Shown: positions 1 through 16,295 of the stretch, piece by piece
Layout of the letters: the number at the start of each line of letters is the position of its first letter
How positions within the stretch are numbered: the stretch's first letter is position 1
NCBI RefSeq assembly: GCF_000012805.1
Contig: NC_007484.1
Location: forward strand, 2,040,001 to 2,072,000
Reading direction: 5' to 3'
DNA length: 32,000 nt
Origin: Nitrosococcus oceani ATCC 19707
GTDB lineage: Bacteria > Pseudomonadota > Gammaproteobacteria > Nitrosococcales > Nitrosococcaceae
Program-made: the position numbers and the translations under genes
Notes under the pieces: model-generated
What the model saw: the letters and a program-made list of their open reading frames with translations, nothing else
Told to the model about the DNA's origin: nothing
The model's database searches: none

Positions 1-2946
1 ATTGTTGGCCAGGGCATCGTAGAAGGCTACTTCATCCGGGTTCAGGCCCAGGGCTTCGTCGCGCTCCAGTTCCGCCTGGAATTGCTTGGCCATGGCGATC
101 AGCTCTTCTATCACCTGGGCGGTTTCAATGCCCCGGTTGTTGTATTGGCGCAGGGTCTCTTGCAGCCGATCAGCGTATTTCTTCTCCTGCACCACGTTAT
201 TGCGGGTTTTGGCCTTGATGTTGTCTTTCAGCAGCTTTTCCAGTAGCTCCACGGCGAAATTCTTGTAAGGCATCCGCCGCACGTCTTCGAGGAATTCCTC
301 CGAGAGCAGGCCGATGTTAGGTTTATCTAATCCGCACAACGCAAACACGTCGGTCACGCCTTCCGCCACCAGGGCATTGTCCAGGATCTGCTTGAGGGCG
401 GAATTTTTTTCCTCCTGGGTCAATTTCTTGTCCACGCGGGTGTGCTTGGTAAGGGCAGCCTTCACCGCCGATAGGAAAGCGACCTCCTTATGATAGGCCC
501 GGGCCTCCTCCAGGGTGCCACACAAAGAGTAGGCCATATTCACAGCAAGAATCGTATCGAGGAAACGCTTCTTACCGCCCTCAAGGCTCAATATATAGTT
601 GGCGGTGGGAATCAGCAATCGGGTCGCCTCATGCTCAAAGCTGCTGTAATCAAAGCCAGCATTTTGGGGTGTCTTGGCAAACAGCCCGTGGATAATGTCC
701 AGCTTCTCCAGCAGCACGGCAAAGGCTTCTTCCGCGCTGTGGGTCGGCTCGCCCTTGCCCTTGGCGTCGGTATAGGTTTTCAGGGCTTGCTTGAGCGCAT
801 TGGCGATACCGATATAGTCCACCACCAGCCCGCCGGGCTTGTTCTTGAACACCCGGTTGACGCGGGCAATGGCCTGCATCAGGTTATGGCCTTTCATGGG
901 CTTGTCCACATACATGGTATGGCAGCAAGGGGCGTCAAAGCCGGTGAGCCACATATCCCGCACAATCACCAGCTTGAGGGGATCATAGATGTCCTTGAAG
1001 CGCTTCTCCAGTCGTTTCTTGGTCTGCTGGTTGTAAAGGTGCGGTTGCAACAAGGGCCTGTCAGAGGCGGAGCCAGTCATCACAATCTTGATGGCCCCTT
1101 TCTCCGGGTCCGGGTCGTGCCAGTCCGGGCGCAGGGCGACAATCTCATTATACAGATGCACGCAAATCTCCCGGCTCATGGCCACGATCATGGCTTTACC
1201 GTCCATGGACTGAGAGCGGATTTCAAAGTGCCGCACCAGATCGGCAGCCACCTGCTTAAGCCGCGGCCCAGACCCCACCAGCTTTTCCAGGCGGCTCCAC
1301 TCGCCCTTGGTTTTTTCCCGCTGGCCGAGGTCTTCCTCATCCTCCACCACTGCTTCCACTTGGTCGGATAATTTCTCAATCAGCTCCCGGTTGATATCCA
1401 ATTTGGCCAGCCGGGATTCGTAATAGATGGGCACGGTAGCCCCATCGTCCACCGCATCCTGAATGTCATAGATGGACACATAATCGCCGAACACGGCGCG
1501 GGTATCCTTATCTTCATTGGCAATGGGGGTACCGGTAAAACCGATAAAGGAGGCATTGGGCAGGGCATCGCGCATGTGCTTGGCGTAGCCGAAGGTGTAG
1601 CGGCCATCCTTCTTCAGGGTGGCCTTAAGGCCGTACTGACTGCGGTGAGCCTCGTCGGAAATCACCACGATATTATGGCGGTCGTTGAGAATGGGATGAT
1701 CGTTCTCCCCATCCAGCAGGGCGAATTTCTGCACCGTGGTGAAGATAATGCCACCGGATGCCCGCTCGGCCAGCAAGCGGCGCAGGGTATCCCGGTCTTC
1801 CGCCTGCACCGGTTCCTGCTTCAGCAGTTCCTTGGCGGCGCTGAAGGTGGCGAAGAGTTGGCCGTCCAGATCGTTGCGGTCGGTGACCACCATCAGGGTC
1901 GGGTTGTTCATCTCGGGCTGTTGCAGCAGCTTGCCCGCGTAGCAGCACATGGAAAGACTCTTGCCGGACCCCTGGGTGTGCCAGACCACGCCGGCCTTTT
2001 TGCTGCCCGGCACCAGGTCATCGGCGTAGGTGGCGCGCTTTTCACCGGCCCAGCGCTGCCTGGGCTCCTGGGCGGCAATCACGGTGGCCTTCACCGCTTC
2101 CCGCACCGCGTGGAACTGGTGATAACCGGCAATCTTCTTGCTCAGGCGACCGGAATCCGTCTCGAAAATGACGAAATAACGAAGGTAATCCAGGAACAAT
2201 TCCCGATCGAAGAAACCCCGCACCAGGGTTTCCAACTGCCAGTCCAGCAGGGGCTTGTCGTCCTCGTGCTTGAGAGTGCGCCAGGGCATAAAGCGCTCCT
2301 GGTTGGCCGTAAGCGAACCCACCCGGGCATGGTAGCCGTCGCTGATTACCAGCGCCTCGTTAAAGACGAACAGCTCGGGGATTTCGTCCTTGTAAGTCTG
2401 AAGCTGATGGAAGGCATCCCAGATGTCCACATTCTCGGCATGGGGGCTTTTCAGCTCCAGCACCGCCAAGGGCAGGCCATTGATAAAGCAAATAATATCC
2501 GGGCGGCGCAGTTGCTTGCTCCCCAAGAGGGTGAACTGATTGATGGCCCGGAAGCGGTTGGCGTTCAGATCATCGAAATCGATCAGCAACGCCCGGTCGT
2601 GGACTATTTTCTCTTCCCTTTCCCTCACCCCGGCCCTCTCCCAGGGGGAGAGGGAGGATAGGGTCTTGTATTCAACCGGCACCCCTTCCAGCAGTAACCG
2701 GTGAAAGGCTCGATTGCTGACCACGGTATCCAGGCTTTCGGGCTTACCAACCACCGCCACTACCTGCTCGATACAGCTTTCCGGCAAGTGGGGGTTGATG
2801 CGGCGAATGGCCGCTTCCAGATCGGCCAGTAACCATACTTGGCGGTAATCAGCACGCCCAGGCGCCAGATCGGAGCCGTGGGCCAGTTCCCAACCGCCCT
2901 CGGCAAACCAGGCCAGGCATTGTTGTTCCAGTTGCTCTTCGGTCAT
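1..2946 (-). CDS. hsdR: Type I restriction enzyme R subunit (HsdR); the C-terminus runs off the left edge of the window
   Basis: Absent from the ORF track because it has no stop codon inside the window. Hand translation of the minus strand from the ATG at 2946-2944 stays open to base 1 (982 codons). It begins [23 protein letters not shown]. It contains [12 protein letters not shown] (Walker A-like), [12 protein letters not shown] (DEAH box), [21 protein letters not shown] and QAIARVNR, which are typical SF2 helicase motifs of HsdR. The long plus-strand ORFs 490-1371 and 1576-2661 are its antisense shadows. Confidence 0.93.
2616..2657. repeat. Solo copy of a GC-rich hairpin element (ccctttccctcaccccggccctctcccagggggagagggagg) inside hsdR
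   Basis: It has the same sequence family as the head of the hsdM arrays at 7216-7252 and 8036-8070, and as the inverted copy at 7468-7510. It contains the inverted repeat ctctccc / gggagag. It is read through in frame as ...[19 protein letters not shown]... in the N-terminal region of HsdR. Confidence 0.7.
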
Positions 2947-2949
2947 TCC

Positions 2950-3963
2950 TCAGTCCTTATGCCCGGCGGGCTCCTTAAGCAGAATGAAATGCTCAATAAG
3001 CCGGATCATCAGGGTTTTCTGATCCGGCAAGCTTTCGGCCACCAGCAGCGCCAGGGCTACCAGGGTGTTGTCATTGATCAATTGTGCTACCGGTTTGGCT
3101 AATAGGTGCCGGTTGCGTTGCAGATACCACAAAAACAAAAATGAGCCTGTCCGTTTATTACCGTCCGCCAGGGGATGATTTTTGATCACAAAATAGAGCA
3201 AGTGGGCGGCGCGGCTTGCCACGTTCGGGTAGAACAACTCATCGCCAAAGCCCTGTTCAATGGTGGCCAAGGCCGAGGCCAACCCATCACCGCGAATCTG
3301 ACCAAACAGCTCGGTGGCTTCGTCCTTGGCGATCAAAGTTTGCTTAAGCTCGCTAATGGCCCGCAGCGCCTCATCCAGCGCTAGCGGCAGCATATCGGTC
3401 TGCTTAATGCCGATCTCTGTCAAATGTTGTTCATCATAACCCTGCAGCAGGCTCCAGGAGCGGGCGTAATCGCTGATTACTTGGGCCACGGCTTCGCCTT
3501 CGGCGGAAACCATGCCTTGGTTGGCGAGCGTGCGGCTGAGCAAATTCACCGCCTGCTCGAACTCGATGCCCCGCTCAGCTAAGCGGCGCTGGTTGAGGGT
3601 GTAGCCCTGTACCAGATGGTCTTTGAGGACTTGGGTGGCCCATTGGCGGAACTGGGTGGCGCGCTTGGAGCTGACCCGGTAACCCACGGAGATAATGGCA
3701 TCGAGATTGTAGTGTTTGATGCGGCGACGAACCTGTCGCGTGCCCTCCTGACGAACTACCGAGAAATCCTCGGTAGTTGCCGCTTCCTCCAGCTCACCTT
3801 CCTGATAGATGTTTTTCAGGTGTAAGCCAATATTGTCTGTCGAGGTATCGAACAATACTGACATCTGCGCCTGGCTCAACCACACCGTTCCCTGCTCCAG
3901 CGCCACTTCCAGCTGGGCCTGGCCATCGTTTGAGGTAAAAATCTGTATTTGCTGGTCATTCAT
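2950..3963 (-). CDS. RhuM-family protein with a C-terminal Fic/Doc-like domain
   Basis: The N-terminus (IQIFTSNDGQAQLEVALEQGTVWLSQAQMSVLF...YNLDAIISVGYRVSSKRATQFRQWAT) matches my recollection of the RhuM virulence-protein family. The C-terminus has HPLADGNKRTG, a Fic/Doc core motif of the Doc type (GNKR rather than GNGR). I prefer the ATG at 3963 (GAGG 9 nt upstream) to the ATG at 3978. The stop lies 3 nt before the hsdR ATG. Confidence 0.8.
   Translation of the reverse strand: MNDQQIQIFTSNDGQAQLEVALEQGTVWLSQAQMSVLFDTSTDNIGLHLKNIYQEGELEEAATTEDFSVVRQEGTRQVRRRIKHYNLDAIISVGYRVSSKRATQFRQWATQVLKDHLVQGYTLNQRRLAERGIEFEQAVNLLSRTLANQGMVSAEGEAVAQVISDYARSWSLLQGYDEQHLTEIGIKQTDMLPLALDEALRAISELKQTLIAKDEATELFGQIRGDGLASALATIEQGFGDELFYPNVASRAAHLLYFVIKNHPLADGNKRTGSFLFLWYLQRNRHLLAKPVAQLINDNTLVALALLVAESLPDQKTLMIRLIEHFILLKEPAGHKD
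3753..3867. repeat. 115-bp segment identical to 5209-5323; core of a longer diverged direct repeat (3551-3963 versus 5136-5419)
   Basis: Base-by-base comparison of the two rhuM N-terminal regions shows perfect identity from gaactaccgag to gacatctg. Flanking sequence is visibly diverged. Confidence 0.85.
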
Positions 3964-4048
3964 CGTTCGCGGCCTCATCTCCTTATCGGGCCAAAGATAG
4001 AATGGAAAGTCAGCGCCTCTAGGCTAACAACCACCAACAATCTCCCTG

Positions 4049-4076
4049 TTGACACTTATCAAAATATCCCTATACT
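4049..4076 (+). promoter_or_regulatory. Candidate sigma70-type promoter on the plus strand, pointing antisense into the 3' end of abi
   Basis: TTGACA (4049-4054), a 16-bp spacer, then TATACT (4071-4076). This is a sequence match only. No plus-strand gene follows it. Confidence 0.25.
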
Positions 4077-4154
4077 TCAATTTAATATGCCCGGCGCCTC
4101 TTCACAGTTTTCTGTGTACGCGTCGGCTCTCGTTTGTGGCCCTTTTTTCTCTCG

Positions 4155-5120
4155 CTAGCGCCATAGCTCCCACGTCTCCCAGCTTTCTGGCATTCCCATA
4201 TCCTGTAAGCTCACGGTGCCCGACACAGTCGCGGGAAATTCTTGCACCAATGCCTGAAAGCGCTGTGCCCACGTCGAATTGGGGCAGATATTTCGCAACA
4301 ACTTCTGGATCAGACAGAAATAGAAAAACGGTCGGGCGTTGCTCAGCGTTTGCCAATATGAATCATCGACCAGCGGTGCCGAACGCTCCAGCACGTTAAT
4401 GTTCCACAGGCGGCTGTGATGGGCGGATACGTTACGAATAAAATTCAGGCTACGCACCCACTCGGCCAGGGTACCACCATCTGTTGCCCCGTACTTGGCG
4501 GCGATCCGGCCCTTATCGGCTGGTTTCATCCCCGCATAGAGCTTAGACATCATGCCGAAATCCCAGACCTCGACAGCCACCCAAATCGGCAACTGGCCGT
4601 ACTTTTTGAGGTAATGCTCCACAAAAGGCTCGCGCCGGGCACGATGCAGATTCTGCTGGTATCTCTCAAGCCACACCTGATGCCATGTCTTGCCCTTGGC
4701 GTAACCCTTACGCTGAATCTGCTTGCTGAAATGGCCATGAAAGCAGTTAGGATTTTCATGGGCATGGATATCCTGCTTTCCCAGGAGGTGGGCGATATCC
4801 ACCCGCAAAGCCATCTCGATGCGTTCCAGGGCGTCCAGCGCCAGCAGCCGCAGCTTCTTATCGAATACGTAGAGTTGAACCACTTCCCGGAAATGGCTGC
4901 CTGCAACAAAGACGTTACTGCGGCGATCAGAAATCTTCCCCCCGTCACCCTGCTGGCGCTCAAGCTGTCGAAAGGGATACCAGTATCCACTGAGCCGGTA
5001 ATATCCGATGCGCTGAAGATAGCTCTTGGCGGCTTCGCAATCATCCACCTGTAACCCGCGCTCCATGAGGATTTCGAGCTGCTCCCCGAAGGGTTTCCAT
5101 GACTTAGGTGTTGGCGTCAC
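4155..5120 (-). CDS. Abi_2-family (AbiD/AbiF-like) abortive-infection protein
   Basis: 321-aa ORF with LQRIGYYRLSGYWYPF near the N-terminus and IRNVSAHHSRLWN near the C-terminus. I recognise both as conserved motifs of the Abi-like (Abi_2) family. The GTG start at 5120 overlaps the stop of the upstream rhuM remnant (GTGA). Confidence 0.8.
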   Translation of the reverse strand: MTPTPKSWKPFGEQLEILMERGLQVDDCEAAKSYLQRIGYYRLSGYWYPFRQLERQQGDGGKISDRRSNVFVAGSHFREVVQLYVFDKKLRLLALDALERIEMALRVDIAHLLGKQDIHAHENPNCFHGHFSKQIQRKGYAKGKTWHQVWLERYQQNLHRARREPFVEHYLKKYGQLPIWVAVEVWDFGMMSKLYAGMKPADKGRIAAKYGATDGGTLAEWVRSLNFIRNVSAHHSRLWNINVLERSAPLVDDSYWQTLSNARPFFYFCLIQKLLRNICPNSTWAQRFQALVQEFPATVSGTVSLQDMGMPESWETWELWR

Positions 5121-5419
5121 ACAGTGGCCTCCGTAGCCTGCTCAAACTCGATGCCACACTCAGTGTAGTGTTTGATGGGGCGGCGAACCTGCCGCTTTCC
5201 TTCTTGGCGAACTACCGAGAAATCCTCGGTAGTTGCCGCTTCCTCCAGCTCACCTTCCTGATAGATGTTTTTCAGGTGTAAGCCAATATTGTCTGTCGAG
5301 GTATCGAACAATACTGACATCTGACTTTGGATGAGCCACACTGTCTCCTGCTCCAGCGCCACTTCCAACTGGGCCTAGCCATCGTTTGAGGTGAAAATCT
5401 GTATTTGTTGATGCGTCAT
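5117..5419 (-). pseudogene. Degraded paralog of the N-terminal part of the RhuM-family gene
   Basis: From the ATG at 5419 it reads MTHQQIQIFTSNDG, then an in-frame TAG at 5377-5375 where the intact copy has CAG. An internal deletion of about 130 bp relative to 3580-3708 joins ...IKHY to ...GIEFEQA. Homology stops exactly at the abi start. Confidence 0.8.
5209..5323. repeat. 115-bp segment identical to 3753-3867
   Basis: See the 3753-3867 feature. Together the two copies form direct repeats bracketing abi. Confidence 0.85.
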
Positions 5420-5514: not shown

Positions 5515-6966
5515 TCAGAGGAGGCTGTCCTCTGTGCAAGCGCTGACATCCATTTCGGATACCCGGCTTTCGGCGTCCGATATCGAAAGCTCACCGGAGA
5601 GGAGTTTGGGTAGGAGGGTGTCGCGTAATGTAGATAATGTGATTGATTCAAGCCGAAGCTCAATCTGCTTTTCCAGGATGTTACGTAAAGAGTTACCCGC
5701 GTCCGAGATAAGTTGCTCACAGGGAATAGCGCATAGAGCACGCTTCAGGTGTTCTCTTTTAATGTGCCCCATGGTGACGGCTTTGTCAGCTGCAATACGC
5801 TGAAAATCTTCAAGATGGTGCTGGGTGAAATGATAATAAAGCCATTTGGGGTGTGTTTCGGAGGTAACCTTAAATAGATGCTGGTTTAAGGCTGCTCTGC
5901 CTCCACACCATGTATCGACGAGTAGTGAGCCTGACCACGAAAAAACTACGTCGCCATTATCTATGATGCACTCGGGGTTGATATTTGGAGACGCTTTTTC
6001 TTCACCATCTGCATAGCCTTTTTTCAGTTGTGCGATTTTAACCACGGGCAGGTAGTCATTTTCATTCTCTGGCCTGAATTTTTGAAGAGCTAAGCCGTTT
6101 TTGTATTTGGCAATGTCATCGAGTGCGCGGCAACTCCACCCCTCCGGAATCTCCCCCAACTCACTATCTTGCATGGCCGACGGAAATAGCTCGGCGGTGG
6201 TGCGGAGTTGGGCGTATTGCTCGGGCTGTTCGGCCTGAAGGCGGGTGAGTTGTTCCGAGGATTTGCCGGAAATGGCCTGCATGGCGGCAAGCAGGGCGTC
6301 TTCCTGGCTGCCGCCGGCTTTCAGTGCGGCGATTTTGGCTTTGACCGGCTCGAAATCCACAAACCAACTTTTGAAGATGGCTTGGGCCATTTGTTCGAGG
6401 ATTTGGTTGATTTGGTGGTTTAGACTTATTTTGTCGCTAATGCTCCAAAGGATATTTGCAATGGACTGTTGCAGGTTAATTGGCGGTATTCTAGTTTCGT
6501 ATGAAGTTATTTTGTTTGGCGATGTGTGCAATATTTTTGTGCCAGTGGCACTTCCCGCCAAATAACGGTTGAAGTCATAAGAAAGAAAGACCCAATATAA
6601 AAAAGGCGCCCAAACTTTTTTGGGCTCTTTTACTATGAGCTTTCCCAACCGTTGGTTGTGAAGGTACACTTCATCGTCTTCTGGAATTATTCCCGGCAGT
6701 CCTAGAATTTCACCACCTGGGGTTTGGCACGTCATTGCAAGAAGAACATCGCCAGGTTGAAGTTGATACTCTTTGGGGTAGTCCTCTGTGTACCGCTTTA
6801 TTCTAGTGCTTGAAAAACGAAAACCACCGGAATAATCAAAGTTTCCAATTGCTACAACGATAGGTCCTTTGATCACACTCTCAGCCATGTGCTTTCCTTT
6901 GAAGGCCCAGCCATGCTTAATCTCTATCAACTTCGATAATGTCACGAGAGGCCACTCACAACTCAT
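5515..6966 (-). CDS. hsdS: Type I R-M specificity subunit (HsdS)
   Basis: It has the two-domain layout typical of HsdS. Two variable, lower-GC recognition regions are separated by a conserved helical region (QILEQMAQAIFKSWFVDFEPV...) and followed by a conserved C-terminal helix (RDTLLPKLLSGEL). The ATG at 6966 overlaps the hsdM stop (ATGAGTTGTGA). The ORF-track start at 7023 lies inside hsdM and is less likely. Confidence 0.85.
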   Translation of the reverse strand: MSCEWPLVTLSKLIEIKHGWAFKGKHMAESVIKGPIVVAIGNFDYSGGFRFSSTRIKRYTEDYPKEYQLQPGDVLLAMTCQTPGGEILGLPGIIPEDDEVYLHNQRLGKLIVKEPKKVWAPFLYWVFLSYDFNRYLAGSATGTKILHTSPNKITSYETRIPPINLQQSIANILWSISDKISLNHQINQILEQMAQAIFKSWFVDFEPVKAKIAALKAGGSQEDALLAAMQAISGKSSEQLTRLQAEQPEQYAQLRTTAELFPSAMQDSELGEIPEGWSCRALDDIAKYKNGLALQKFRPENENDYLPVVKIAQLKKGYADGEEKASPNINPECIIDNGDVVFSWSGSLLVDTWCGGRAALNQHLFKVTSETHPKWLYYHFTQHHLEDFQRIAADKAVTMGHIKREHLKRALCAIPCEQLISDAGNSLRNILEKQIELRLESITLSTLRDTLLPKLLSGELSISDAESRVSEMDVSACTEDSLL

Positions 6967-9505
6967 ATCCCAGCCTCCCCAGATTCCGCTTGATTTCAGC
7001 TTCCAATCGATCACTCTCGGCAAATTGCTCCCGCAGTTGCTCGGTCAGTCGCATCATTTTCTCGGCGAAGGGTTCGCCGTCGTCTTCCTGTTCCGGTGCG
7101 CCGACGTAGCGGCCCGGCGTCAGTACGAAGTCGTGCTTTTTGATGTCGTCCAGGCTGACGGATTTGCAGAAGCCGGGGATGTCCTGGTAGGTGGTTGCCC
7201 TCTTTGCACTCTTTGCCCTCACCCCCGGCCCCTCTCCCAGAGGGAGAGGGGTGTTTTGCTGACCCTCCCCTGCTAGAGGGAGAGGGGTATTTCGCTGGCT
7301 CTCCCCTGTTAGAGGGAGAGGGGTGTTTTGCTGGCTCTCCCCTGTTAGAGGGAGAGGGGTGTTTTGCTGACCCTCCCCTGCTGGAAGGATATGCTGATTC
7401 TCCCCTGCCGGAATGGCCTCGCTGCCCCGGTCGTCGCCCCGGGGCAAGGTGACGCGGGGTGTTGAAGCCCTCTCCCTCTGGGAGAGGGTTTGGGTGAGGG
7501 AAAGGGTGAGCGTGTTGTAGATGGACTCCAGTACGCCTTCCGTCTCGGTCAAAACCTGCCGGTTGTTAAAACGCAGCACTTGAATCCCTATTTCCTGGAG
7601 ACGTTGTGTCCGACGGGCATCCCGCTGCCTTCCTTCAGGCGTCAGGTGCTGGCTGCCATCCAATTCGACCACCAGCCGGTGTTCATGGCAATAAAAGTCC
7701 GCGATGTAATCCTCAATGGGCTGTTGGCGGCGGAACTTGGCATTGGCCATCTGGCGATTTCGCAGCAGTTGCCAAAGCAGATTTTCCCCATCGGTCTGGT
7801 TTTTTCTTAGCTCGCGGGCGAATCGCAATAGCTTGGGTGGGGTTTGGCCCTTACCCCGGCTCTCTCCCAAGGGAAGGGGGGGAATACGCTGCCAGGCATG
7901 GAAGGTGTCGGCGATTTTGGCAATATCATCCAAGGTGAAGTCCCGCAGCACCCGGTCGCGCATGTAGCCCAGGTTGCGGGCGTCGATAAACAGGAATTCC
8001 CTGCGGCGGTCCCGCTTGCTCTCTTTGCCCTCTTTACCCTCACCCCCTGCCCCTCTCCCAGAGGGAGAGGGGTATTTTGCTGATTCTCTCCCGCTGGAGG
8101 GAGAGGGGTGTTTTGCTGACTCTCCCCTGCTAGAGGGAAAGGAGTGTTTTGCTGGCTCTCCCCTACTGGAGGGAGAGGGGTGTTTTCCACCGGCTTTGTC
8201 TTTGGTCAAAAACCAGATGCAGGCCGGGATCTGGGTGTTGGTAAAGAGCTGCCCCGGCAGGGCCACCATGCACTCCACCAGATCTTCTTCAATCAGGCGC
8301 TGGCGGATTTTCCCTTCGTTGTTGGTGTGGGCGCTCATGGAGCCGTTGGCCAGCAGCAGGGCCATGCTACCGGTGGGTGCCAGATGGTGAATCATGTGCT
8401 GCATCCAGGCAAAGTTGGCGTTGCCCTTGGGCGGGGTGCCGTATTGCCAGCGGGCATCGTCCGCCAGGGATTCGCTCCACCAATCCTTCATGTTGAAGGG
8501 CGGGTTGGCCATGACGAAATCGGCCCGCAGATCCGGGTGCTGGTCGTCCAGGAAAGTGTCGGCGTTCTTTTTGCCGAAGTTGAAATCGATGCCCCGAATG
8601 GCCATGTTCATGGCGGCCAGCTTCCAGGTGGTGGGGTTGGATTCCTGGCCGTAGACGGAGATATGCTTTTTTTGCTCGGCGGGATCGTAGTGCTGTTCCT
8701 TGGCGTGCTCCTCGATGAACTTGTCGCTGGAGACAAAAAAGCCGCCGGAGCCCATGGCCGGGTCGTACACCCGGCCCGAATAGGGTTCGAGCATTTCCAC
8801 AATCAGGGTGACGATGCTCTTGGGGGTGTAATATTGGCCGCCTTGCTTGCCTTCGGCCAGGGCGAACTGGCCCAGGAAGTATTCGTATACATGGCCGAGG
8901 ATGTCTTTGCTGTGCAGGTGTAGCTTCTCCCCGCCGTACACCGGCTTGGTGAAAGAGGTATCGGAGAAGGTATTAATCAGCCCCAGCAGCTTCTCGTTTT
9001 CCAACTGGTACTGGCTGATGCGGTTGAGGATGCCCCTGAGCTTGGCGTTGCTCTTTTCGATAGCTTCCAGGGCGTTATCCATCAGCCAGGAGACGGAGCG
9101 CAGCTTGACATCATTGCCCGCATCGTCCTGCCACAGCACGGTGCCCACGGGCAGCACGGCTTTTTCTTTCACGGTATTCCAGCGGGCCGCTTTGGGCACC
9201 CAGAATACGTTGGCTTCGCGATAGTAGTCCAGGATTTCCAGCTCGTCCCGCAACGCCTGCTGATAGTCGGCGTCACCGTCGTAGTCTTCGGGAGAGAGGT
9301 AGTAGATGTCGTTGCTTTCATCCTTGAACAGTGCCAGCAGTTGCTCCTGGCGCTCTTCAAAGGCGTCAGAGACGTATTTGAGGAAGATAAGCCCGAGCAC
9401 CACGTGCTTGTAGTTGGCGGCGTCCAGGTTAGCGCGCAGCTTGTCGGCGGCCTTCCAGAGCTTATTGTCCAGGGACTTGAGAAATTGCTGTTCCGTATCG
9501 TTCAT
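6956..9505 (-). CDS. hsdM: Type I R-M N6-adenine DNA methyltransferase subunit (HsdM), expanded to 849 aa by in-frame insertions
   Basis: The HsdM N-terminal domain reads LWKAADKLRANLDAANYKHVVLGLIFLKYVSD. SAM-binding motif I is VYDPAMGSGGFF. Catalytic motif IV is FVMANPPF. The conserved C-terminus is YQDIPGFCKSVSLDDIKKHDFVLTPGRYVG. The reading frame is open across two inserted blocks, about 8021-8188 and about 7196-7888. Confidence 0.9.
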   Translation of the reverse strand: MNDTEQQFLKSLDNKLWKAADKLRANLDAANYKHVVLGLIFLKYVSDAFEERQEQLLALFKDESNDIYYLSPEDYDGDADYQQALRDELEILDYYREANVFWVPKAARWNTVKEKAVLPVGTVLWQDDAGNDVKLRSVSWLMDNALEAIEKSNAKLRGILNRISQYQLENEKLLGLINTFSDTSFTKPVYGGEKLHLHSKDILGHVYEYFLGQFALAEGKQGGQYYTPKSIVTLIVEMLEPYSGRVYDPAMGSGGFFVSSDKFIEEHAKEQHYDPAEQKKHISVYGQESNPTTWKLAAMNMAIRGIDFNFGKKNADTFLDDQHPDLRADFVMANPPFNMKDWWSESLADDARWQYGTPPKGNANFAWMQHMIHHLAPTGSMALLLANGSMSAHTNNEGKIRQRLIEEDLVECMVALPGQLFTNTQIPACIWFLTKDKAGGKHPSPSSRGEPAKHSFPSSRGESAKHPSPSSGRESAKYPSPSGRGAGGEGKEGKESKRDRRREFLFIDARNLGYMRDRVLRDFTLDDIAKIADTFHAWQRIPPLPLGESRGKGQTPPKLLRFARELRKNQTDGENLLWQLLRNRQMANAKFRRQQPIEDYIADFYCHEHRLVVELDGSQHLTPEGRQRDARRTQRLQEIGIQVLRFNNRQVLTETEGVLESIYNTLTLSLTQTLSQRERASTPRVTLPRGDDRGSEAIPAGENQHILPAGEGQQNTPLPLTGESQQNTPLPLTGESQRNTPLPLAGEGQQNTPLPLGEGPGVRAKSAKRATTYQDIPGFCKSVSLDDIKKHDFVLTPGRYVGAPEQEDDGEPFAEKMMRLTEQLREQFAESDRLEAEIKRNLGRLGYEL
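7200..7424. repeat. Hairpin-repeat array A: a ~60-bp head followed by 36-bp tandem units (three clean, two degenerate)
   Basis: The head is ctctttgcactctttgccctcacccccggcccctctcccagagggagagggg. Units lie at 7263-7298, 7299-7334 and 7335-7370 (ctctcccctgttagagggagaggggtgttttgctgg), each with the ctctccc/gggagag inverted repeat. Decayed units follow to about 7424. In the hsdM frame the array reads QQNTPLPLTGES repeats. Confidence 0.85.
7468..7510. repeat. Inverted-orientation copy of the GC-rich element, flanking the DUF559 module on its 3' side
   Basis: ccctctccctctgggagagggtttgggtgagggaaagggtgag is close to the reverse complement of the hsdR copy at 2616-2657 and of the array heads. Confidence 0.6.
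7508..7840 (-). other. DUF559 (Vsr-like / PD-(D/E)xK-fold endonuclease) module translated in frame within hsdM
   Basis: The sequence is PPKLLRFARELRKNQTDGENLLWQLLRNRQMANAKFRRQQPIEDYIADFYCHEHRLVVELDGSQHLTPEGRQRDARRTQRLQEIGIQVLRFNNRQVLTETEGVLESIYNTL. It matches the DUF559 pattern as I recall it: AR.LR...T.AE..LW..LR....KFRRQ.PI..YI.DF.C....L..ELDG..H........D..R...L...G..VLRF.N..V. The acidic and His positions (DF, ELDG, H) are retained. There is no ATG of its own directly upstream. Confidence 0.75.
7848..7882. repeat. Direct-orientation degenerate copy of the GC-rich element, flanking the DUF559 module on its 5' side
   Basis: cccttaccccggctctctcccaagggaagggggg resembles ccctcaccccggcccctctcccagagggagagggg. 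With 7468-7510 it forms an imperfect inverted-repeat pair around the DUF559 coding segment. Confidence 0.55.
8021..8188. repeat. Hairpin-repeat array B: the same head plus about three 36-bp units
   Basis: The head ctctttgccctctttaccctcaccccctgcccctctcccagagggagagggg is nearly identical to the array A head. Units lie at 8084-8119, 8120-8155 and 8156-8188. Orientation matches array A, but hsdM reads it in a different frame (GESAKHPSPSSR-type repeats). Confidence 0.85.
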
Positions 9506-10775: not shown

Positions 10776-12056
10776 TTATGCAATATTCCCATAACTTAAA
10801 AAGTTAGGAGTAACATTCTTTATCTGATAAATTTCTTTTTTAGAAACAGCATTGGTAATTACCGCCGATCTCCAAGACATTAAGCTGGTTTGCGGTTCAA
10901 AAATTCCGTGTTCATACCTGCTAAAATTCTGGGCAAAAATTCTGTTTTTGTCATGCCCTTTCCATCGTATGGAAAAATCCTTGTTGACCTTGAAACATTT
11001 ATTTTCATCAAATTCAATAAGATGTTTTATAGGCTCAATAAATCCTGGAATTCTGTTCTCAAACCCGGTACACAAAATAACAATATCAGCCTCCATGGAT
11101 TCTTCTTTTTGAGAAAAATTATTGGAAATAGTTAATTTATAACCTTTTCCATTGCTCTCTACCCCTTGAATCCTTCGATAAGGAAGTATTTTAAAATCAA
11201 TCGGTGATTGCTCTACATTTTGAATGAAATAAAGATCATTATAAAGGCTTTGCAGGTAGGTGGGGGTATTACCATCGCTAGATAATTTTTGGTAATCTAC
11301 AATATTTCTTTTGAGTTGAGGGTTTATGGAAAAAAAATCTTCTACGTAATGGGGGCTAAAATACTCATTAGTAAAAGGCGATTCATCTAAAGGCTCAAGG
11401 TTTGCCCTGCTGGAGACAAGAGTTAGGGATTTTGCATTTCCCCATTTTCTCCTAAGAGCATTTCTAAAAACTTCAACGCCTGTTTGCCCACCGCCGATAA
11501 TAACAATACGCTTGCCACTGACATCCAGATTTTTTATTGATTCTGATTTCGCATGGAAGAAAGTATCGCCAATATAGGGCACGGTAAACGACGGAATTTT
11601 AGGGCTAACTCCTGTTCCGATGCAGATATTTTTGCTTTTAAATCTTTCTTTTTGATTCTCAATAATAAAATTCTCTCCATCATAATAGAGATTTTTTATT
11701 TTTGAATTGAAAGATAATTTTTCCGGCATTTGCCGGGTAACCCACTGGCAATAAATTTCAAACTCTCTCCTAGTAATAACATGCCTTTTGGTATTCATAA
11801 ATGAATGAAAAAACCCATTCATGACAAGATAATTTAGAAAAGAATAAGGGCTCGTAGGATCAACGCCCGTTACCAGATCCTTTAGAAAAGCCGTTTGCAT
11901 ATCCGAGTCTGGAAAGATGATTTCCGAATGCCAAAGAAATAATGGTTTTTGTTCAAAAAAATGAGTTTTTAATTCTTTATTTTTTTCTGAGATAGCAGCC
12001 AAGCTTAAATTAAACGGGCCAATCCCAATACCGACTAAATCAAATACATCACGCAT
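10776..12056 (-). CDS. iucD: Lysine/ornithine N-hydroxylase (IucD/PvdA/AlcA family flavin monooxygenase)
   Basis: The N-terminal FAD fingerprint is DLVGIGIGPFNLSLA and a second dinucleotide fold is RIVIIGGGQTGVE. It is the last gene of an A-B-C-D ordered operon. Its ATG overlaps the iucC stop (ATGCGTGA). GC content is very low. Confidence 0.85.
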   Translation of the reverse strand: MRDVFDLVGIGIGPFNLSLAAISEKNKELKTHFFEQKPLFLWHSEIIFPDSDMQTAFLKDLVTGVDPTSPYSFLNYLVMNGFFHSFMNTKRHVITRREFEIYCQWVTRQMPEKLSFNSKIKNLYYDGENFIIENQKERFKSKNICIGTGVSPKIPSFTVPYIGDTFFHAKSESIKNLDVSGKRIVIIGGGQTGVEVFRNALRRKWGNAKSLTLVSSRANLEPLDESPFTNEYFSPHYVEDFFSINPQLKRNIVDYQKLSSDGNTPTYLQSLYNDLYFIQNVEQSPIDFKILPYRRIQGVESNGKGYKLTISNNFSQKEESMEADIVILCTGFENRIPGFIEPIKHLIEFDENKCFKVNKDFSIRWKGHDKNRIFAQNFSRYEHGIFEPQTSLMSWRSAVITNAVSKKEIYQIKNVTPNFLSYGNIA

Positions 12057-13785
12057 AAAGATAATCTTTTTCTATCAGCGGATTTAGCAGGGGATTTCCA
12101 AGCTGTGGTTTAGGTCTCTGGGCCGTATCTTGATAGCCAATGATAAAGCGGACCTTATTTAAAAGAACACGATGATAATTGGGCGTCAATAGGCTTGGAG
12201 TCTTTGATCTTGTTGGGTATTTTTTTTCATAATCATGAATTATCGTGCCTAATACACTATAGAATTTTTTTTCCTTATAGCCATGAGAGAGAAAAAGCGC
12301 CTGCGAAATAAATCTAAGAACTGAAATAAAATGCCCCGTGATAAGATCGTAGATAATATGATCAGAGGGTAAAATATCTAATTTTTCAATCGTTTTATCG
12401 GAAAAATATTTCCTTGTTTCCGCTGGAAAATTTTTATTTAAACGTAAGTCACCATGAAAATCCTTAATAATTAAGCCTGAAGGGGCATTATTATTTAGCT
12501 TTAGTATGGTATTTTGACCATGTGCAACCAAGCCAATTCCATAGTGAGACTGAAGGTGATAAAGGGGAATAACAACTTTTTTAAAATATTCTTCCAGCCA
12601 TTCATCAATGGTTAGAGAAGAATTTTCTATTAAGCAACCAATCAACGATTTTTTATTCCCGTCCAAATAAGAAAGCGCGCCTGTCATCAAGCATTTCTCA
12701 TTGCTTTTAAGCTTGGTTACACTCGATTCTCTCCATACTGCCCCAAGGAATTCTTTATATTGATAAGGAGCACCTGGGATATTCTTATAGGAAGGCTCCA
12801 CATAACTAAAAGCTGCAATATCCTTTAAGCAATCCACATTAGCATTGAATAAACAATCATCCTGCTTAATAATAGCTTCAACGCCTTCCGATATTTCCGA
12901 AGCAATAGAAATATAGCGAGCAGGTATTCCTCGTATACAAGAAGTATTTAAAATTGAAATGGGCAGTTTAACGTCACAAAGGTATGGATTGCTGCAATTA
13001 GAAAACGTTCTTAGGGATATATAGGGTTTATAGCTATCGCCGGCACTAGATAAAAAAATTATATTATTTTTGCTGATATCTTTCTGGAAGAAGATTTTTA
13101 TTCTATTTTCCCACTGCCAAGGATGTATGGGAATAATGTAATAAGATTCGGCGTTATATTTTTTATTCGCTAATTTTTCTTTTAATAAATTAATTTCCCG
13201 TTTTTCAAGATCAGCGTAAATAATCTCACTAAAAAATTTTTCTTTTTGGTGATTTACCGTAACTAAATTCTTTTTGATAGCTACCCGGTAGAATTGGATT
13301 TCTTTAGCATGCTCTGGCGAGAACATGGAGAGATCGTCTGGAGACCAGCCTATTCTTCCCTTGTTTAAAATAATTTTTGGATGCCCATCCAGATAACTTT
13401 CCACCTCTAAGAAACCAAGTTGGGACATTTCCTGGGAAGATATTTTCTTTTTCAAAATAGTTTGATCGCTATAAAGCGTATGTAGCATTTCTTCCATAAA
13501 ATTAGCTAAGGTAATATCATTCATTTTTGTAAGATGCTGTGTTTCCTTAAAAAAATTTGCAGCATCAAGTTCTAAACCATCACTTCTCTTTAATGATCTT
13601 TCATCTATAACAAGGTGGCACCAGACACTTTTATATGCCTCAAAAATGTAAGTTAAATTTTCCTCTATTTTTAACGCATATAATCCCTTTTTTATTTCCC
13701 GTACTTCCTGAGAAATGATCTCCTCAAAATAAAGTTCACTTATGGCTTTAGCAATAAGATTCCTATTGGCTATTTCCCAACTCAT
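12049..13785 (-). CDS. iucC: IucA/IucC-family NRPS-independent siderophore synthetase
   Basis: It shows IucA/IucC hallmarks (IPIHPWQWENRI and AHGQN). The ATG at 13785 forms an ATGA overlap with the iucB stop. The ORF-track start at 13821 would overlap iucB by 40 nt. Confidence 0.85.
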   Translation of the reverse strand: MSWEIANRNLIAKAISELYFEEIISQEVREIKKGLYALKIEENLTYIFEAYKSVWCHLVIDERSLKRSDGLELDAANFFKETQHLTKMNDITLANFMEEMLHTLYSDQTILKKKISSQEMSQLGFLEVESYLDGHPKIILNKGRIGWSPDDLSMFSPEHAKEIQFYRVAIKKNLVTVNHQKEKFFSEIIYADLEKREINLLKEKLANKKYNAESYYIIPIHPWQWENRIKIFFQKDISKNNIIFLSSAGDSYKPYISLRTFSNCSNPYLCDVKLPISILNTSCIRGIPARYISIASEISEGVEAIIKQDDCLFNANVDCLKDIAAFSYVEPSYKNIPGAPYQYKEFLGAVWRESSVTKLKSNEKCLMTGALSYLDGNKKSLIGCLIENSSLTIDEWLEEYFKKVVIPLYHLQSHYGIGLVAHGQNTILKLNNNAPSGLIIKDFHGDLRLNKNFPAETRKYFSDKTIEKLDILPSDHIIYDLITGHFISVLRFISQALFLSHGYKEKKFYSVLGTIIHDYEKKYPTRSKTPSLLTPNYHRVLLNKVRFIIGYQDTAQRPKPQLGNPLLNPLIEKDYLYA

Positions 13786-14606
13786 AAGTAGCCGCCTGTA
13801 AAAAACCTCTCCCGGGTACACTCTAGGAGGACCGCTCTTTTATGGGGAAAATCAAATTCTTTAATTCTTTTCCAAAAAGGAAGAAAATCAACGTATTTCA
13901 ACACCTTTTTATTATCGGATCGCGGCTCAGCCATAATCTTTAAAGTTCTGGGCTCATCAAGAAAAAGATAATGGATAACACTTTTTAGCATAGCGCCTGT
14001 ATTTTTTAATCCCAGAAATTTTTTTTCCCCAATCAGGAAATGGAACCCTCTATCAAAATCACCGCTTTCGTAATAGGCTCCTAAACGATCCTCTTTAACC
14101 CAATAAAGCTCAAAATAACCAGTAGGTTCATCATTAATATCTAATATGACAGGAATGATATGGGGGTCATTTAAATTTTTTTCTATATACTGAAGATGAT
14201 TTTCCCTTGTATCTTTTAATTCCCAAAATTCCGAGATACGTGGCTGATTGTGCCATCTCGAAAATGTATCGATGTCATTTTTTGGATCGATGACCCGAAA
14301 AGAAATAGTTTTATCTATTTCGTAGACAAACCTTTTGTAGAGCAGAGTTCCCCTTTCTGGATTATGCCTTATTGGATGAGAAACCCTGTTAGTTTCTGTC
14401 CAAACTACGGGGTAAAGTCCTCTTTCAGGATTCATTAGCCAATAAGGAGGAATTTGGAAAAACTCGTTTCTGCTGATTATTGTTTTTTTATCACCTGGCT
14501 TTATTTCTGCTTCTTTAACATCAGGTATAAATTTATTTTTTAAAAATTCTTCTTTTTCCTTATCTAAAAGAATATCGTTAACTCTTAATTTTTTTTTATC
14601 TATCAC
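13782..14606 (-). CDS. iucB: N-hydroxylysine acetyltransferase-like GNAT (IucB/AlcB family)
   Basis: Its position between two IucA/IucC synthetase genes and its size fit IucB-type siderophore acetyltransferases, as does the pattern FRVIDPKNDIDTFSRWHNQPRISEFWE...GFHFLIGE. It has a GTG start 6 nt after the iucA stop. Confidence 0.72.
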   Translation of the reverse strand: MIDKKKLRVNDILLDKEKEEFLKNKFIPDVKEAEIKPGDKKTIISRNEFFQIPPYWLMNPERGLYPVVWTETNRVSHPIRHNPERGTLLYKRFVYEIDKTISFRVIDPKNDIDTFSRWHNQPRISEFWELKDTRENHLQYIEKNLNDPHIIPVILDINDEPTGYFELYWVKEDRLGAYYESGDFDRGFHFLIGEKKFLGLKNTGAMLKSVIHYLFLDEPRTLKIMAEPRSDNKKVLKYVDFLPFWKRIKEFDFPHKRAVLLECTRERFFTGGYL

Positions 14607-14612
14607 GGTTTT

Positions 14613-16295
14613 TTAAAATTTTGAAGACAAGGGATTTTGAATAAAATTATAAATATCCAAAGGATTTTTCTCAGTGTTCTCGTTAATATCCTTTAGGCAA
14701 CAGAAAAAATTTCCTTTTTGTCCTATTAAATCTGAATCAAGAAGATAATCAAGAAATGATTTGTCTAAAATATCGCTATTTTTTTTGTCTAACAAATATT
14801 CAACAAGCATATGAAGAAGATCTTCTTCATTACATTTTTTTTGTATTGCTAGTGCATTTATTAAACTAAATGTCGAATTAATAATAAGATAATATCCAAG
14901 AAGTATATGAGCCATCTTTCTATCTAGGATATTTCCATTGTCCAGATCCAGCAAAGGTACCTCTTGCCTCATCTTTTCATAACCAAGGCTGGTATACCCT
15001 GTTCCCTGGCAGTCTCTAAAAATAACCCCAAAGGGATAGCTCTTATCATTTAACTGAACAATTATATTCTGCTGGTGCGCGCCAAAAAGAATGCCATGGT
15101 TAGCTTGGGCCATTATAAATGGATCAAGCACATAGTTAAGATAAAGATAGAACCATTTTTTAGCATCAATGTTACGTGATGAGAAAAAACCTTTTTCCAG
15201 ATAGGGATCAGCTTGCGCTATAGTTGATAAAACAATTGCTTCAGAACACATTTGTCCTCTAAAAGGATTGGCTCTTATGAGCACAATTGTTTCTATAATG
15301 AGATTGCTCGATTTTCCCTTAATAGCAAGAAATGAGGGTTCACATAAGATGTGAAAATTTTTATTTTTGTTAAGGAAATCTTTTCCATTACTAGAATTAA
15401 TCACATCATGAACTTGAATCCCTCTAACAATTTCAACTTCCTGCAAATGTCGGATGGAATTCGTGATTCTCAGCGACAGAGAAAATTTGAGCATATAATG
15501 GCTATTTTCACAGTAAATAGTTCTTAATGAACTTGTCGCCTTCCATTTTAAACGCCCTTCCTTTTCAATTGGTATTAAATCTTTGTCCTTTATTAATTCT
15601 TTAATTTCTTTATGGTTGCTTAGAGATTTAAACTGCCAAGGATGAAAAGGGAATGGTATATAACCGTCCTTAATGACTGTTTCATGATCTTGTTTAAAAA
15701 GATCCGCATACCAATCTATATTATTGAAATACTCAGAATTTTTCTGAATAAGGTGTTCTTTATTCAAGAAAGCCCATTTTAAATTAAAATTTCCTTTAAA
15801 TTCTGGCGCATATAAGTGGTGATCTTCTTGGCTAAATTGCTCTTTACTTTTTGGGCACGGATGGAAATTATGTCCCAGTAATAACGCCTGCTCCGCTTCA
15901 ATAAAGGACAAGGAATTTTTTTTAAAAAGCTTTTTATAATCTTGCTTTCTGTAGTCTAGTATTTGAGCAATATTATTATGGCTTTCCATAATTCTTTGGT
16001 AAAGTCCTGGCATTTCATCATTCTTATTTACCCACCTAAGAAATTCGCGAATGAAATCTTCAAAATTCAAGAATTTCTTTTTGTTTCCTAGAATTTCATA
16101 AAAGATATTTAAATAAGAATGATTTCCTACCCTTGAATAATTCTCAAGCACGATGCTCAAGGTTTGCTCGTTATTTTTAAATATGATTTCGTTATTTTCT
16201 ATTTCAAAATCACTACACTCTCTCAAAAAAGAATTTATAAGAGCGGTAACGGAGTGTTTTTCAGCAAGTTTATTTAACTCGTTATTCTCTTTCAC
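14613..16295 (-). CDS. iucA: IucA/IucC-family NRPS-independent siderophore synthetase
   Basis: It contains FPFHPWQFKSL and GAHQQN motifs and is the first gene of the operon. It has a GTG start with GAGGG 6 nt upstream. Confidence 0.85.
   Translation of the reverse strand: MKENNELNKLAEKHSVTALINSFLRECSDFEIENNEIIFKNNEQTLSIVLENYSRVGNHSYLNIFYEILGNKKKFLNFEDFIREFLRWVNKNDEMPGLYQRIMESHNNIAQILDYRKQDYKKLFKKNSLSFIEAEQALLLGHNFHPCPKSKEQFSQEDHHLYAPEFKGNFNLKWAFLNKEHLIQKNSEYFNNIDWYADLFKQDHETVIKDGYIPFPFHPWQFKSLSNHKEIKELIKDKDLIPIEKEGRLKWKATSSLRTIYCENSHYMLKFSLSLRITNSIRHLQEVEIVRGIQVHDVINSSNGKDFLNKNKNFHILCEPSFLAIKGKSSNLIIETIVLIRANPFRGQMCSEAIVLSTIAQADPYLEKGFFSSRNIDAKKWFYLYLNYVLDPFIMAQANHGILFGAHQQNIIVQLNDKSYPFGVIFRDCQGTGYTSLGYEKMRQEVPLLDLDNGNILDRKMAHILLGYYLIINSTFSLINALAIQKKCNEEDLLHMLVEYLLDKKNSDILDKSFLDYLLDSDLIGQKGNFFCCLKDINENTEKNPLDIYNFIQNPLSSKF

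Follow-up and report, generated by a model that had tools for sequence, protein, structure and literature searches.

Genes for toxins and accessory defence proteins that are embedded in type I restriction-modification (R-M) operons form the background to the locus described here, the interval between hsdS and hsdR of Nitrosococcus oceani ATCC 19707. This interval lies in a 32,000-nt stretch of contig NC_007484.1 (positions 2,040,001 to 2,072,000 of the forward strand; the whole stretch is called the window) and holds an Abi_2 family gene (abi), a small RNA gene on the opposite strand and a rhuM-fic gene. By position, the closest described system is PrrC of the EcoprrI locus of E. coli, which occupies the slot between hsdS and hsdR on the same strand, carries a HEPN-type RNase with an Rx4-6H motif and is found almost exclusively inside type I R-M operons, a habit that the abi clade of the window seems to approach (17 of 20 informative loci). 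PrrC differs in having an N-terminal ABC ATPase fused to its anticodon-nuclease domain and in being silenced by the R-M proteins with no RNA partner, whereas the Abi protein of the window has no ATPase domain and its gene is accompanied by a conserved RNA gene of its own; RhuM-Fic, in turn, is unrelated to PrrC and occurs mostly outside hsd operons. That toxins of this kind reside in R-M operons has been reported by Anantharaman et al. 2013 (PMC3710099), who listed Abi2/AbiF/AbiD as "embedded in R-M operons", recognised HEPN RNase domains in both PrrC and Abi_2, described neighbourhoods combining R-M, HEPN and DOC genes and proposed a multi-pronged defence by analogy with PrrC-PrrI.

By protein and RNA content, the closest systems are the AbiF/AbiD toxin-antitoxin (TA) modules. 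AbiF is a HEPN RNase whose active site is bound and blocked by a cis-encoded hairpin RNA, which makes the pair a type III TA system, and in the Prevotellaceae, C. difficile and lactococcal AbiF cases the RNA is located upstream of the gene (PMC12373285, PMC12737573, PMC13064643). The abi locus of the window resembles these modules (PbAbiF-AbiFr, 8VZ6; AbiFCd-RCd22; lactococcal AbiD/D1/F) in the full-length Abi_2 fold with catalytic Arg and His and in the short GC-rich hairpin RNA with unpaired CUCU-type bases, a U-tract and its own promoter beside the gene, and distant relatives of the window abi also share the upstream, same-strand position of the RNA. It departs from them in that the window RNA is downstream of and convergent with abi, translation of abi is coupled to that of the operon gene before it, and the RNA forms one hairpin instead of the two motifs of RCd22 and falls under every threshold of the Rfam family RF03085.

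The second toxin-like gene can be compared with Doc, a Fic-fold kinase of EF-Tu. The Fic domain of RhuM-Fic has the NKR variant of the motif found in Doc of Phd-Doc (HPLADGNKR versus HxFx[D/N][A/G]NKR), preceded by an RD..L..AL...G..YP...AA pattern that we take to be typical of COG3654 Doc proteins. It differs from Doc in being fused to an N-terminal RhuM module of ~200 aa and in having no Phd-like antitoxin gene. In a guilt-by-embedding screen, genes embedded in type I R-M, BREX and DISARM loci yielded 145 phage-defence candidates with RhuM represented in the family tables (Payne et al. 2024), and the RhuM-Fic protein of the window, whose gene likewise sits inside a type I R-M operon, belongs to the resulting family PDC-S23. 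Additionally, TgvAB of V. cholerae VPI-2 lies within a type I R-M operon and defends without HsdR; it resembles the present locus as an independent defence system nested in an hsd operon and providing layered defence, but it is a GmrSD-like type IV restriction system directed at modified DNA, which sets it apart from toxins and abortive-infection modules.

The hsdS-hsdR interval of N. oceani is probably a cassette slot that holds two autonomous second-line defence or toxin modules together with the scar of one arrival, and the embedding most likely reflects co-inheritance and layered defence instead of gating by HsdMSR. The features of the locus are as follows, in window coordinates.

6956..9505, minus strand: hsdM, methyltransferase, 849 aa (Pfam HsdM_N, N6_Mtase and DUF559, the last at 1.6e-37)
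5515..7023, minus strand: hsdS, specificity subunit (Pfam Methylase_S; PADLOC Specificity_I, 6.9e-121)
5117..5419, minus strand: rhuM remnant, a pseudogene retaining the first ~135 codons and ending where abi begins
4155..5120, minus strand: abi, Abi_2 (AbiD/AbiF-type) HEPN RNase family, 321 aa, GTG start
4084..4135, plus strand: abi-associated small hairpin RNA (~52 nt) with two helices, a conserved internal loop and a U-rich tail
4049..4076, plus strand: sigma-70-type promoter of the small RNA (TTGACA, 16 nt, TATACT), aimed at the 3' end of abi
2950..3963, minus strand: rhuM-fic/doc, 337 aa, an N-terminal RhuM module and a C-terminal Doc-type Fic domain
1..2946, minus strand, running past the window edge: hsdR (Pfam HSDR_N, SWI2_SNF2, T1R_D3-like and T1RH-like_C)

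On the minus strand, the protein genes are therefore arranged as hsdM, hsdS, the decayed rhuM copy, abi, rhuM-fic and hsdR, and their products are identical in strains ATCC 19707 and C-27. The hsdR product matches the PADLOC model REase_I at 1068.7 bits and is 1068 aa long at full length on the source contig (L001), while the source annotation places the hsdS start at ~6966 (483 aa). A preliminary description of the window had recorded the same gene order with two toxin-like genes in a prrC-like slot, and this is borne out by the open reading frames (ORFs) and by the Pfam and PADLOC assignments, including Abi_2 and RhuM-Doc. Its account of very tight junctions applies to the GTGA overlap (5120-5117), which joins the stop codon of the remnant to the GTG of abi, and to the three bases (2949-2947) between the rhuM-fic stop and the hsdR ATG, but it does not extend to the 95 nt between hsdS and the remnant or to the gap after abi, which measures 176 nt (4154-3979) up to the longest rhuM-fic ORF (ATG at 3978) and 191 nt up to the annotated ATG at 3963. 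Likewise, the statement that all genes share one strand is correct for the protein genes only, as the plus strand of the 176-nt gap carries a promoter and a structured RNA gene that converge on abi.

This RNA gene is the element that sets the locus apart. The ~90 nt past the abi stop codon are better conserved than the Abi protein itself, and a profile search with nhmmer found the element in 40 loci, at -26 to +45 nt relative to the abi stop. Read antisense to abi, its parts follow in a constant order: a -35/-10 pair with a variable spacer, 5'-AAUAyG, a 7-bp stem, unpaired CUCUk, an inner stem-loop (stem of 3-5 bp, variable in length), unpaired UAC, the closing stem and yUyUCAUUU, with the unpaired internal-loop bases being invariant. 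The promoter of the window (4049-4076) agrees with the sigma-70 consensus at 11/12 positions. Across 49 distinct upstream regions, the hexamers are kept with a mean of 8.9/12 matches compared to 3.1 in shuffles, and in 41/48 cases the distance from the end of the -10 element to the RNA is exactly 7 nt. In a hand-made MAFFT alignment of 27 copies (A4), 99.3% of the cells are paired and 7/12 pairs show compensatory change, one position passing through five pair types (G-U, A-U, G-C, C-G and U-G); none of 500 shuffles reached this level, slid controls paired in 18-45%, and RNAalifold independently recovered the same two helices. The window copy folds with a minimum free energy of -17.9 kcal/mol (z -2.6).

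A covariance model (R1) searched against 891 kb of loci returned 58 matches at E<=1, all of them adjoining abi, among which the window copy (4084-4135, plus strand) scored 68.4 bits (E 2.4e-15). In the alignment of the 51 matches at E<=0.001 as fitted by R1, which leans to the model by construction, 99.1% of the cells are paired, 8/10 pairs covary and doubly changed cells number 78 versus 13 +/- 3 in shuffles, with 0/500 shuffles matching the pairing and covariation. In a test of the two strands, 290/292 cells pair in the antisense orientation relative to abi versus 276 in the sense orientation, and all G-U pairs fall on the antisense side. When the window region and 12 related loci were scanned, no Rfam family matched the RNA. 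R1 in turn gave weak matches (15.1 and 10.0 bits) in two phage-like contigs from the gut, each a short distance upstream of abi, and a GC-rich outer stem and unpaired CUCU are common to the R1 RNA and the Rfam abiF RNA.

Since a GC-rich hairpin at the end of a gene, within a mobile cassette and lacking an Rfam match, is also what a terminator, a repetitive extragenic palindromic (REP)-like element or an attC-like recombination site travelling with the cassette would look like, the hairpin might have no function as an RNA partner of Abi. This is very unlikely given that a conserved -35/-10 pair is held at a fixed distance on the strand opposite abi, that the U-tract and every G-U pair belong to this opposite strand, that unpaired bases do not vary and that neither an integron integrase nor a GTTRRRY core is present. 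Moreover, in distant relatives the RNA and its own promoter lie upstream of abi, where an abi terminator is impossible. A plain abi terminator, a REP element and an integron attC site were each weighed and rejected; what spoke against them was the promoter on the opposite strand, the confinement of the G-U pairs and the U-tract to that strand, and the place of the RNA ahead of abi in distant relatives.

Two architectures of the pair can be distinguished. In the window and the closer homologues, the RNA is downstream of abi and convergent with it. In 11 distant homologues (~45% identity), it is located just upstream of abi on the same strand with a promoter of its own, the U-tract stopping 10-25 nt short of the abi start codon. 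Since the RNA stays with abi despite the switch of side and strand, a purely cis action is unlikely and the RNA behaves as a trans-acting partner. We regard it, by analogy, as an AbiF-type antitoxin of a lineage absent from Rfam, which may already be catalogued in the AbiF literature. All 18 RNA-positive loci with a visible hsd gene have the convergent layout, while 0/4 informative loci with an upstream RNA are embedded in hsd operons (one-sided hypergeometric p ~0.005, a value that is uncorrected for shared ancestry). In the upstream layout, the hairpin and U-tract would form an intrinsic terminator that, inside an operon, would cut off abi and hsdR; inversion of the RNA to the far side of abi puts the U-tract on the other strand, so that read-through to hsdR stays possible. 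As an observation apart, the invariant unpaired CCUCU of the window RNA (4098-4102) complements GGAGG, the Shine-Dalgarno sequence located 9-13 nt ahead of the abi GTG, and the RNA could thus also mask the abi ribosome-binding site.

The protein encoded by abi matches Pfam Abi_2 (PF07751) at 8.3e-58 and PADLOC AbiD at 1.7e-61, and aligns over its full length (residues 3-321) with PDB 8VZ6, the structure of PbAbiF bound to its non-coding RNA (1.5e-31). R229 and H234, which constitute an Rx4H motif, and H235 are invariant among 16 sequences, and R229/H234 align with the PbAbiF segment that carries the catalytic R210/H215. Abi is predicted to be a toxic RNase, and abi is probably an AbiF-type RNase gene with its own RNA antitoxin. 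Among relatives of 56-83% identity, the flanks of 20 loci are informative, and 17 of these have abi upstream of hsdR within an hsd operon of the same family; the embedded copies directly precede hsdR except where rhuM-fic intervenes.

For RhuM-Fic, Pfam reports Virulence_RhuM (3.1e-26) and Fic (PF02661, 2.9e-11) and no further domains, and the PADLOC model of PDC-S23 (PDLC04964) is matched at 2.5e-174 by residues 6-335 on profile positions 1-330 of 331. The Doc-type motif that had been noted at the C-terminus is present as H263-P-L-A-D-G-N-K-R271, with Leu in the place of the motif Phe, and does not vary across the alignment of 14 sequences, which comprises the window protein and 13 homologues. 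PDB sequence searches with RhuM-Fic gave marginal matches to SoFic (E 0.4-0.7) and none to Doc, and no small ORF that might encode a Phd-type antitoxin adjoins rhuM-fic at the locus. The distribution of the gene was surveyed with one genome per GTDB species, giving 80 loci (72-88% identity) that were annotated with the Hsd proteins of the window. Here, 27/80 homologues were found inside an hsd operon and 53/80 outside, and 51 of these 53 have no hsd gene within 10 kb, their sampled neighbours being housekeeping genes such as TauE, AraC, PQQ dehydrogenase, HrpB, TetR and MCP. When embedded, rhuM-fic stands directly before hsdR in 23 of the 26 cases with a visible downstream side. A RhuM-domain protein of family PDC-S05 lowered plating of T7 and T5 ~1000-fold when present alone in E. 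coli B (bioRxiv 10.1101/2024.09.26.614923); the tested protein is of another subfamily than the window RhuM-Fic, and the anti-phage data cover this PDC-S05 representative only. Together, the majority of loci outside hsd operons and the activity of the PDC-S05 protein on its own argue for RhuM-type proteins acting independently of a cognate R-M enzyme. A role of RhuM-Fic as a dedicated regulator of HsdR was rejected as well, since two thirds of the close homologues have no hsd neighbour. In a Marinobacter operon (L035, 1645-2139), a small DSPc-like ORF (2.2e-08) is placed between an FRG protein and rhuM-fic; a phosphatase-like product beside a Doc-type putative kinase could be a counter-activity.

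These distributions bear on the idea put forward in the preliminary description, namely that Abi, RhuM-Doc or both are kept latent by contact with HsdMSR in the manner of PrrC and are released by a phage anti-restriction protein. Several features are in keeping with such a guard: both genes occupy the prrC position, PrrC and Abi_2 have the HEPN RNase domain in common, the abi clade and the embedded rhuM-fic genes adhere to the place upstream of hsdR in the proportions given above, and slot proteins with an FRG domain in related operons have an HsdR-like C-terminal segment that hints at docking for some occupants. Yet most close RhuM-Fic homologues have no surrounding hsd operon, a RhuM-domain protein defends alone, and abi brings its own conserved RNA partner, as the self-contained AbiF TA systems do. 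In addition, neither an ABC or AAA domain (Pfam, by which Abi matches only Abi_2) nor an HsdR-like C-terminal segment was found in Abi and RhuM-Fic. Despite the tight linkage to hsdR, nothing in the sequences appears to call for gating of abi by HsdMSR, and a PrrC-like guard is considered unlikely. Of the earlier proposal of backup suicide effectors, the part that survives is the credible connection of both families to toxicity and phage defence; guarding by the R-M enzyme lacks support. The backup-toxin idea is reasonable, although it has been in print since Anantharaman et al. 2013. The suggested novelty of a dual-effector arrangement does not hold, HEPN and DOC genes in R-M neighbourhoods having been published in that year and the pair recurring in other genera. 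The pair occurs together in Halomonas and Nitrincola operons, and most informative abi loci are embedded, as opposed to only about one third of the RhuM-Fic loci.

In line with a cassette slot, the contents of the interval vary among sister operons, in which it holds 1-4 genes. Of the 20 rhuM-fic operons with a recognisable hsdS, 14 have one or more additional genes between hsdS and rhuM-fic, so that two or more embedded genes represent the usual state of this operon family. The extra genes encode Mrr_cat (PDC-S02), DUF4268/PD-(D/E)XK (PDC-S11), FRG (PDC-S15) and GmrSD (HEC-05) proteins and a DSPc-type phosphatase. An uncultured Halomonas (L088) has exactly the order hsdM-hsdS-abi-rhuMfic-hsdR without a remnant and with the RNA in the same abi-RNA-rhuMfic-hsdR arrangement, while Nitrincola tapanii (L038) has the two genes in reverse, rhuMfic-abi-hsdR; the combination of abi and rhuM-fic is thus not unique to N. 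oceani. Elsewhere, abi is preceded by DUF4268 (L089), by a 312-aa ORF (L090) or by a 312-aa ORF, AAA_21 and a 166-aa ORF (L091), and in L011 an N-terminal fragment of hsdR immediately before abi constitutes a scar comparable to the rhuM remnant.

The remnant, so named in the preliminary description, is a true pseudogene. A CAG of the intact copy is replaced by an in-frame TAG at 5377-5375, 129 nt are cleanly deleted in frame, and everything past ~codon 135 is lost. Its similarity to the intact rhuM-fic amounts to 91% identity over 247 nt plus a further 28 nt and stops ~15 nt before the abi GTG, and it matches the N-terminal models of both PDC-S05 and PDC-S23 (PADLOC). The varied occupants and the scars imply that the slot turns over by recombination. 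Within the otherwise 91% identical region, a 117-nt stretch is 100% identical between remnant and intact gene and includes a perfect 10-bp inverted repeat, AACTACCGAG-gattt-CTCGGTAGTT (3754-3778 and 5210-5234); this identity could reflect gene conversion or a functional hairpin.

A separate observation concerns the FRG proteins (PDC-S15) of the slot (L022, 3367-4602; L039, 8598-9866; L077, 4646-5920). Their C-terminal ~57 aa are homologous to the C-terminus of HsdR (T1RH-like_C 255-321), with blastp aligning the segment to N. oceani HsdR 993-1049 at E 8e-7, and this hints that FRG proteins may dock on the methyltransferase core as HsdR does.

The turnover of cassettes by recombination, together with the mobile contexts of the cassette-bearing hsd operons (integrases, transposases, HipA/PIN toxins and AlpA), raises the question of whether the Abi-RNA pair and RhuM-Doc mainly stabilise a mobile R-M island and contribute little to phage defence. 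Doc and type III TA systems were, after all, first described as maintenance systems. Anti-phage phenotypes have been measured for AbiD, AbiF, AbiD1 and the RhuM-domain protein, and other occupants of the slot are restriction-type nucleases and not addiction modules, which makes a role confined to addiction quite improbable.

If the slot is read as a carrier of two autonomous modules, the following mechanism can be proposed. In the first module, Abi would be translated from the hsd transcript, its start overlapping the preceding reading frame, while a strong dedicated promoter on the opposite strand would supply the 52-nt hairpin RNA, encoded just beyond the abi stop, in surplus. As PbAbiF-AbiFr and AbiFCd-RCd22 suggest by analogy, the RNA would bind the Abi dimer and block its active site. 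If an infection got past restriction and then stopped host transcription or caused this RNA to be degraded, the RNase would be set free and the infection aborted. The inversion of the RNA in hsd-embedded copies would keep an intrinsic terminator out of the operon, with hsdR still being transcribed. In the second module, RhuM-Doc (PDC-S23) would act as a single-protein system, with sensing or regulation falling to the RhuM module and the modification of a target in the host, perhaps a translation factor, to the Doc-type Fic domain; that a host protein is modified is suggested by the Doc-type motif and a sub-threshold match to DOC_P1. A variant of this scheme restores a connection to the R-M enzyme: the RNA might do more than neutralise Abi, in that the convergent promoter, firing head-on into the hsd transcript shortly ahead of hsdR or of rhuM-fic and hsdR, might link the levels of Abi, antitoxin and HsdR and turn the mostly hsd-embedded abi clade into an R-M-coupled failsafe with an RNA lock, in which PrrC-like logic is built from a type III TA system. 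Such a coupling is rather doubtful.

Several points weigh against two autonomous modules. The abi clade is, like PrrC, mostly seen in hsd operons (17 of 20 informative loci), which leaves room for a functional tie to the R-M enzyme. That the RNA of this locus is transcribed, that it binds Abi and that Abi is toxic are each presumed from the nucleotide and protein sequences. RF03085 (Rfam abiF) gave no match in the window at E<=10, nor in 12 related loci at E<=1 or E<=10, while phage phiC2 as a positive control was matched at 37.6 bits; homology to the characterised AbiF RNAs is accordingly suggested by architecture and weak model matches only. The 3' end of the RNA overlaps the abi stop codon and its loop CCUCU resembles an anti-Shine-Dalgarno sequence, so that an antisense or translational mechanism might operate in the place of protein binding. 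Four convergent loci lie outside hsd operons, and inversion of the RNA is hence not specific to embedding. For RhuM-Fic, DOC_P1 (TIGR01550) scores 29.1 bits, under its cut-off of 38.65, and the AlphaFold2 model has a predicted local distance difference test (pLDDT) score of 48, obtained with a 14-sequence alignment.

As a case of HEPN and Doc toxins nested in an R-M operon, the locus is ordinary and adds one more example to those published. What is new is the RNA gene, hitherto unannotated and convergent with abi, which would make abi part of a two-component module and a modest new variant of the AbiF TA kind. It represents a well-supported structured RNA family that is absent from Rfam and marks a large proteobacterial clade of Abi_2 in two architectures. 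If the RNA is an antitoxin, Abi_2 "single-gene" systems inside hsd operons would really be two-component TA modules, and the cloning of such an abi without the 100 nt past its stop would probably fail or mislead. It would also illustrate how an operon can accommodate a TA module that contains a terminator while the restriction gene downstream is still transcribed.

Some further observations were made around the locus. HsdM is 849 aa long versus 568-574 aa in homologues and carries an in-frame insert of ~280 aa (about 7195-8186) in which the DUF559 domain (Vsr-like endonuclease fold) is flanked by two arrays of 36-nt repeats with the palindrome CCTCTCCCnnnGGGAGAGG; one copy of this palindrome is also found in frame in hsdR (2635-2653). 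Just beyond the left edge of the window, directly after hsdR, the source contig encodes a 137-aa Cas12f1-like_TNB (TnpB-type) fragment (L001, 15387-15800), a further sign of island mobility. At 10776-16295, the window contains a low-GC island (31-35% versus ~55%) with an aerobactin-like siderophore pathway comprising a lysine/ornithine N-monooxygenase, two IucA/IucC synthetases and an acetyltransferase, and at 18831-25243 genes for a TonB-dependent receptor, a PepSY-TM protein and ABC/HlyD exporters are located.

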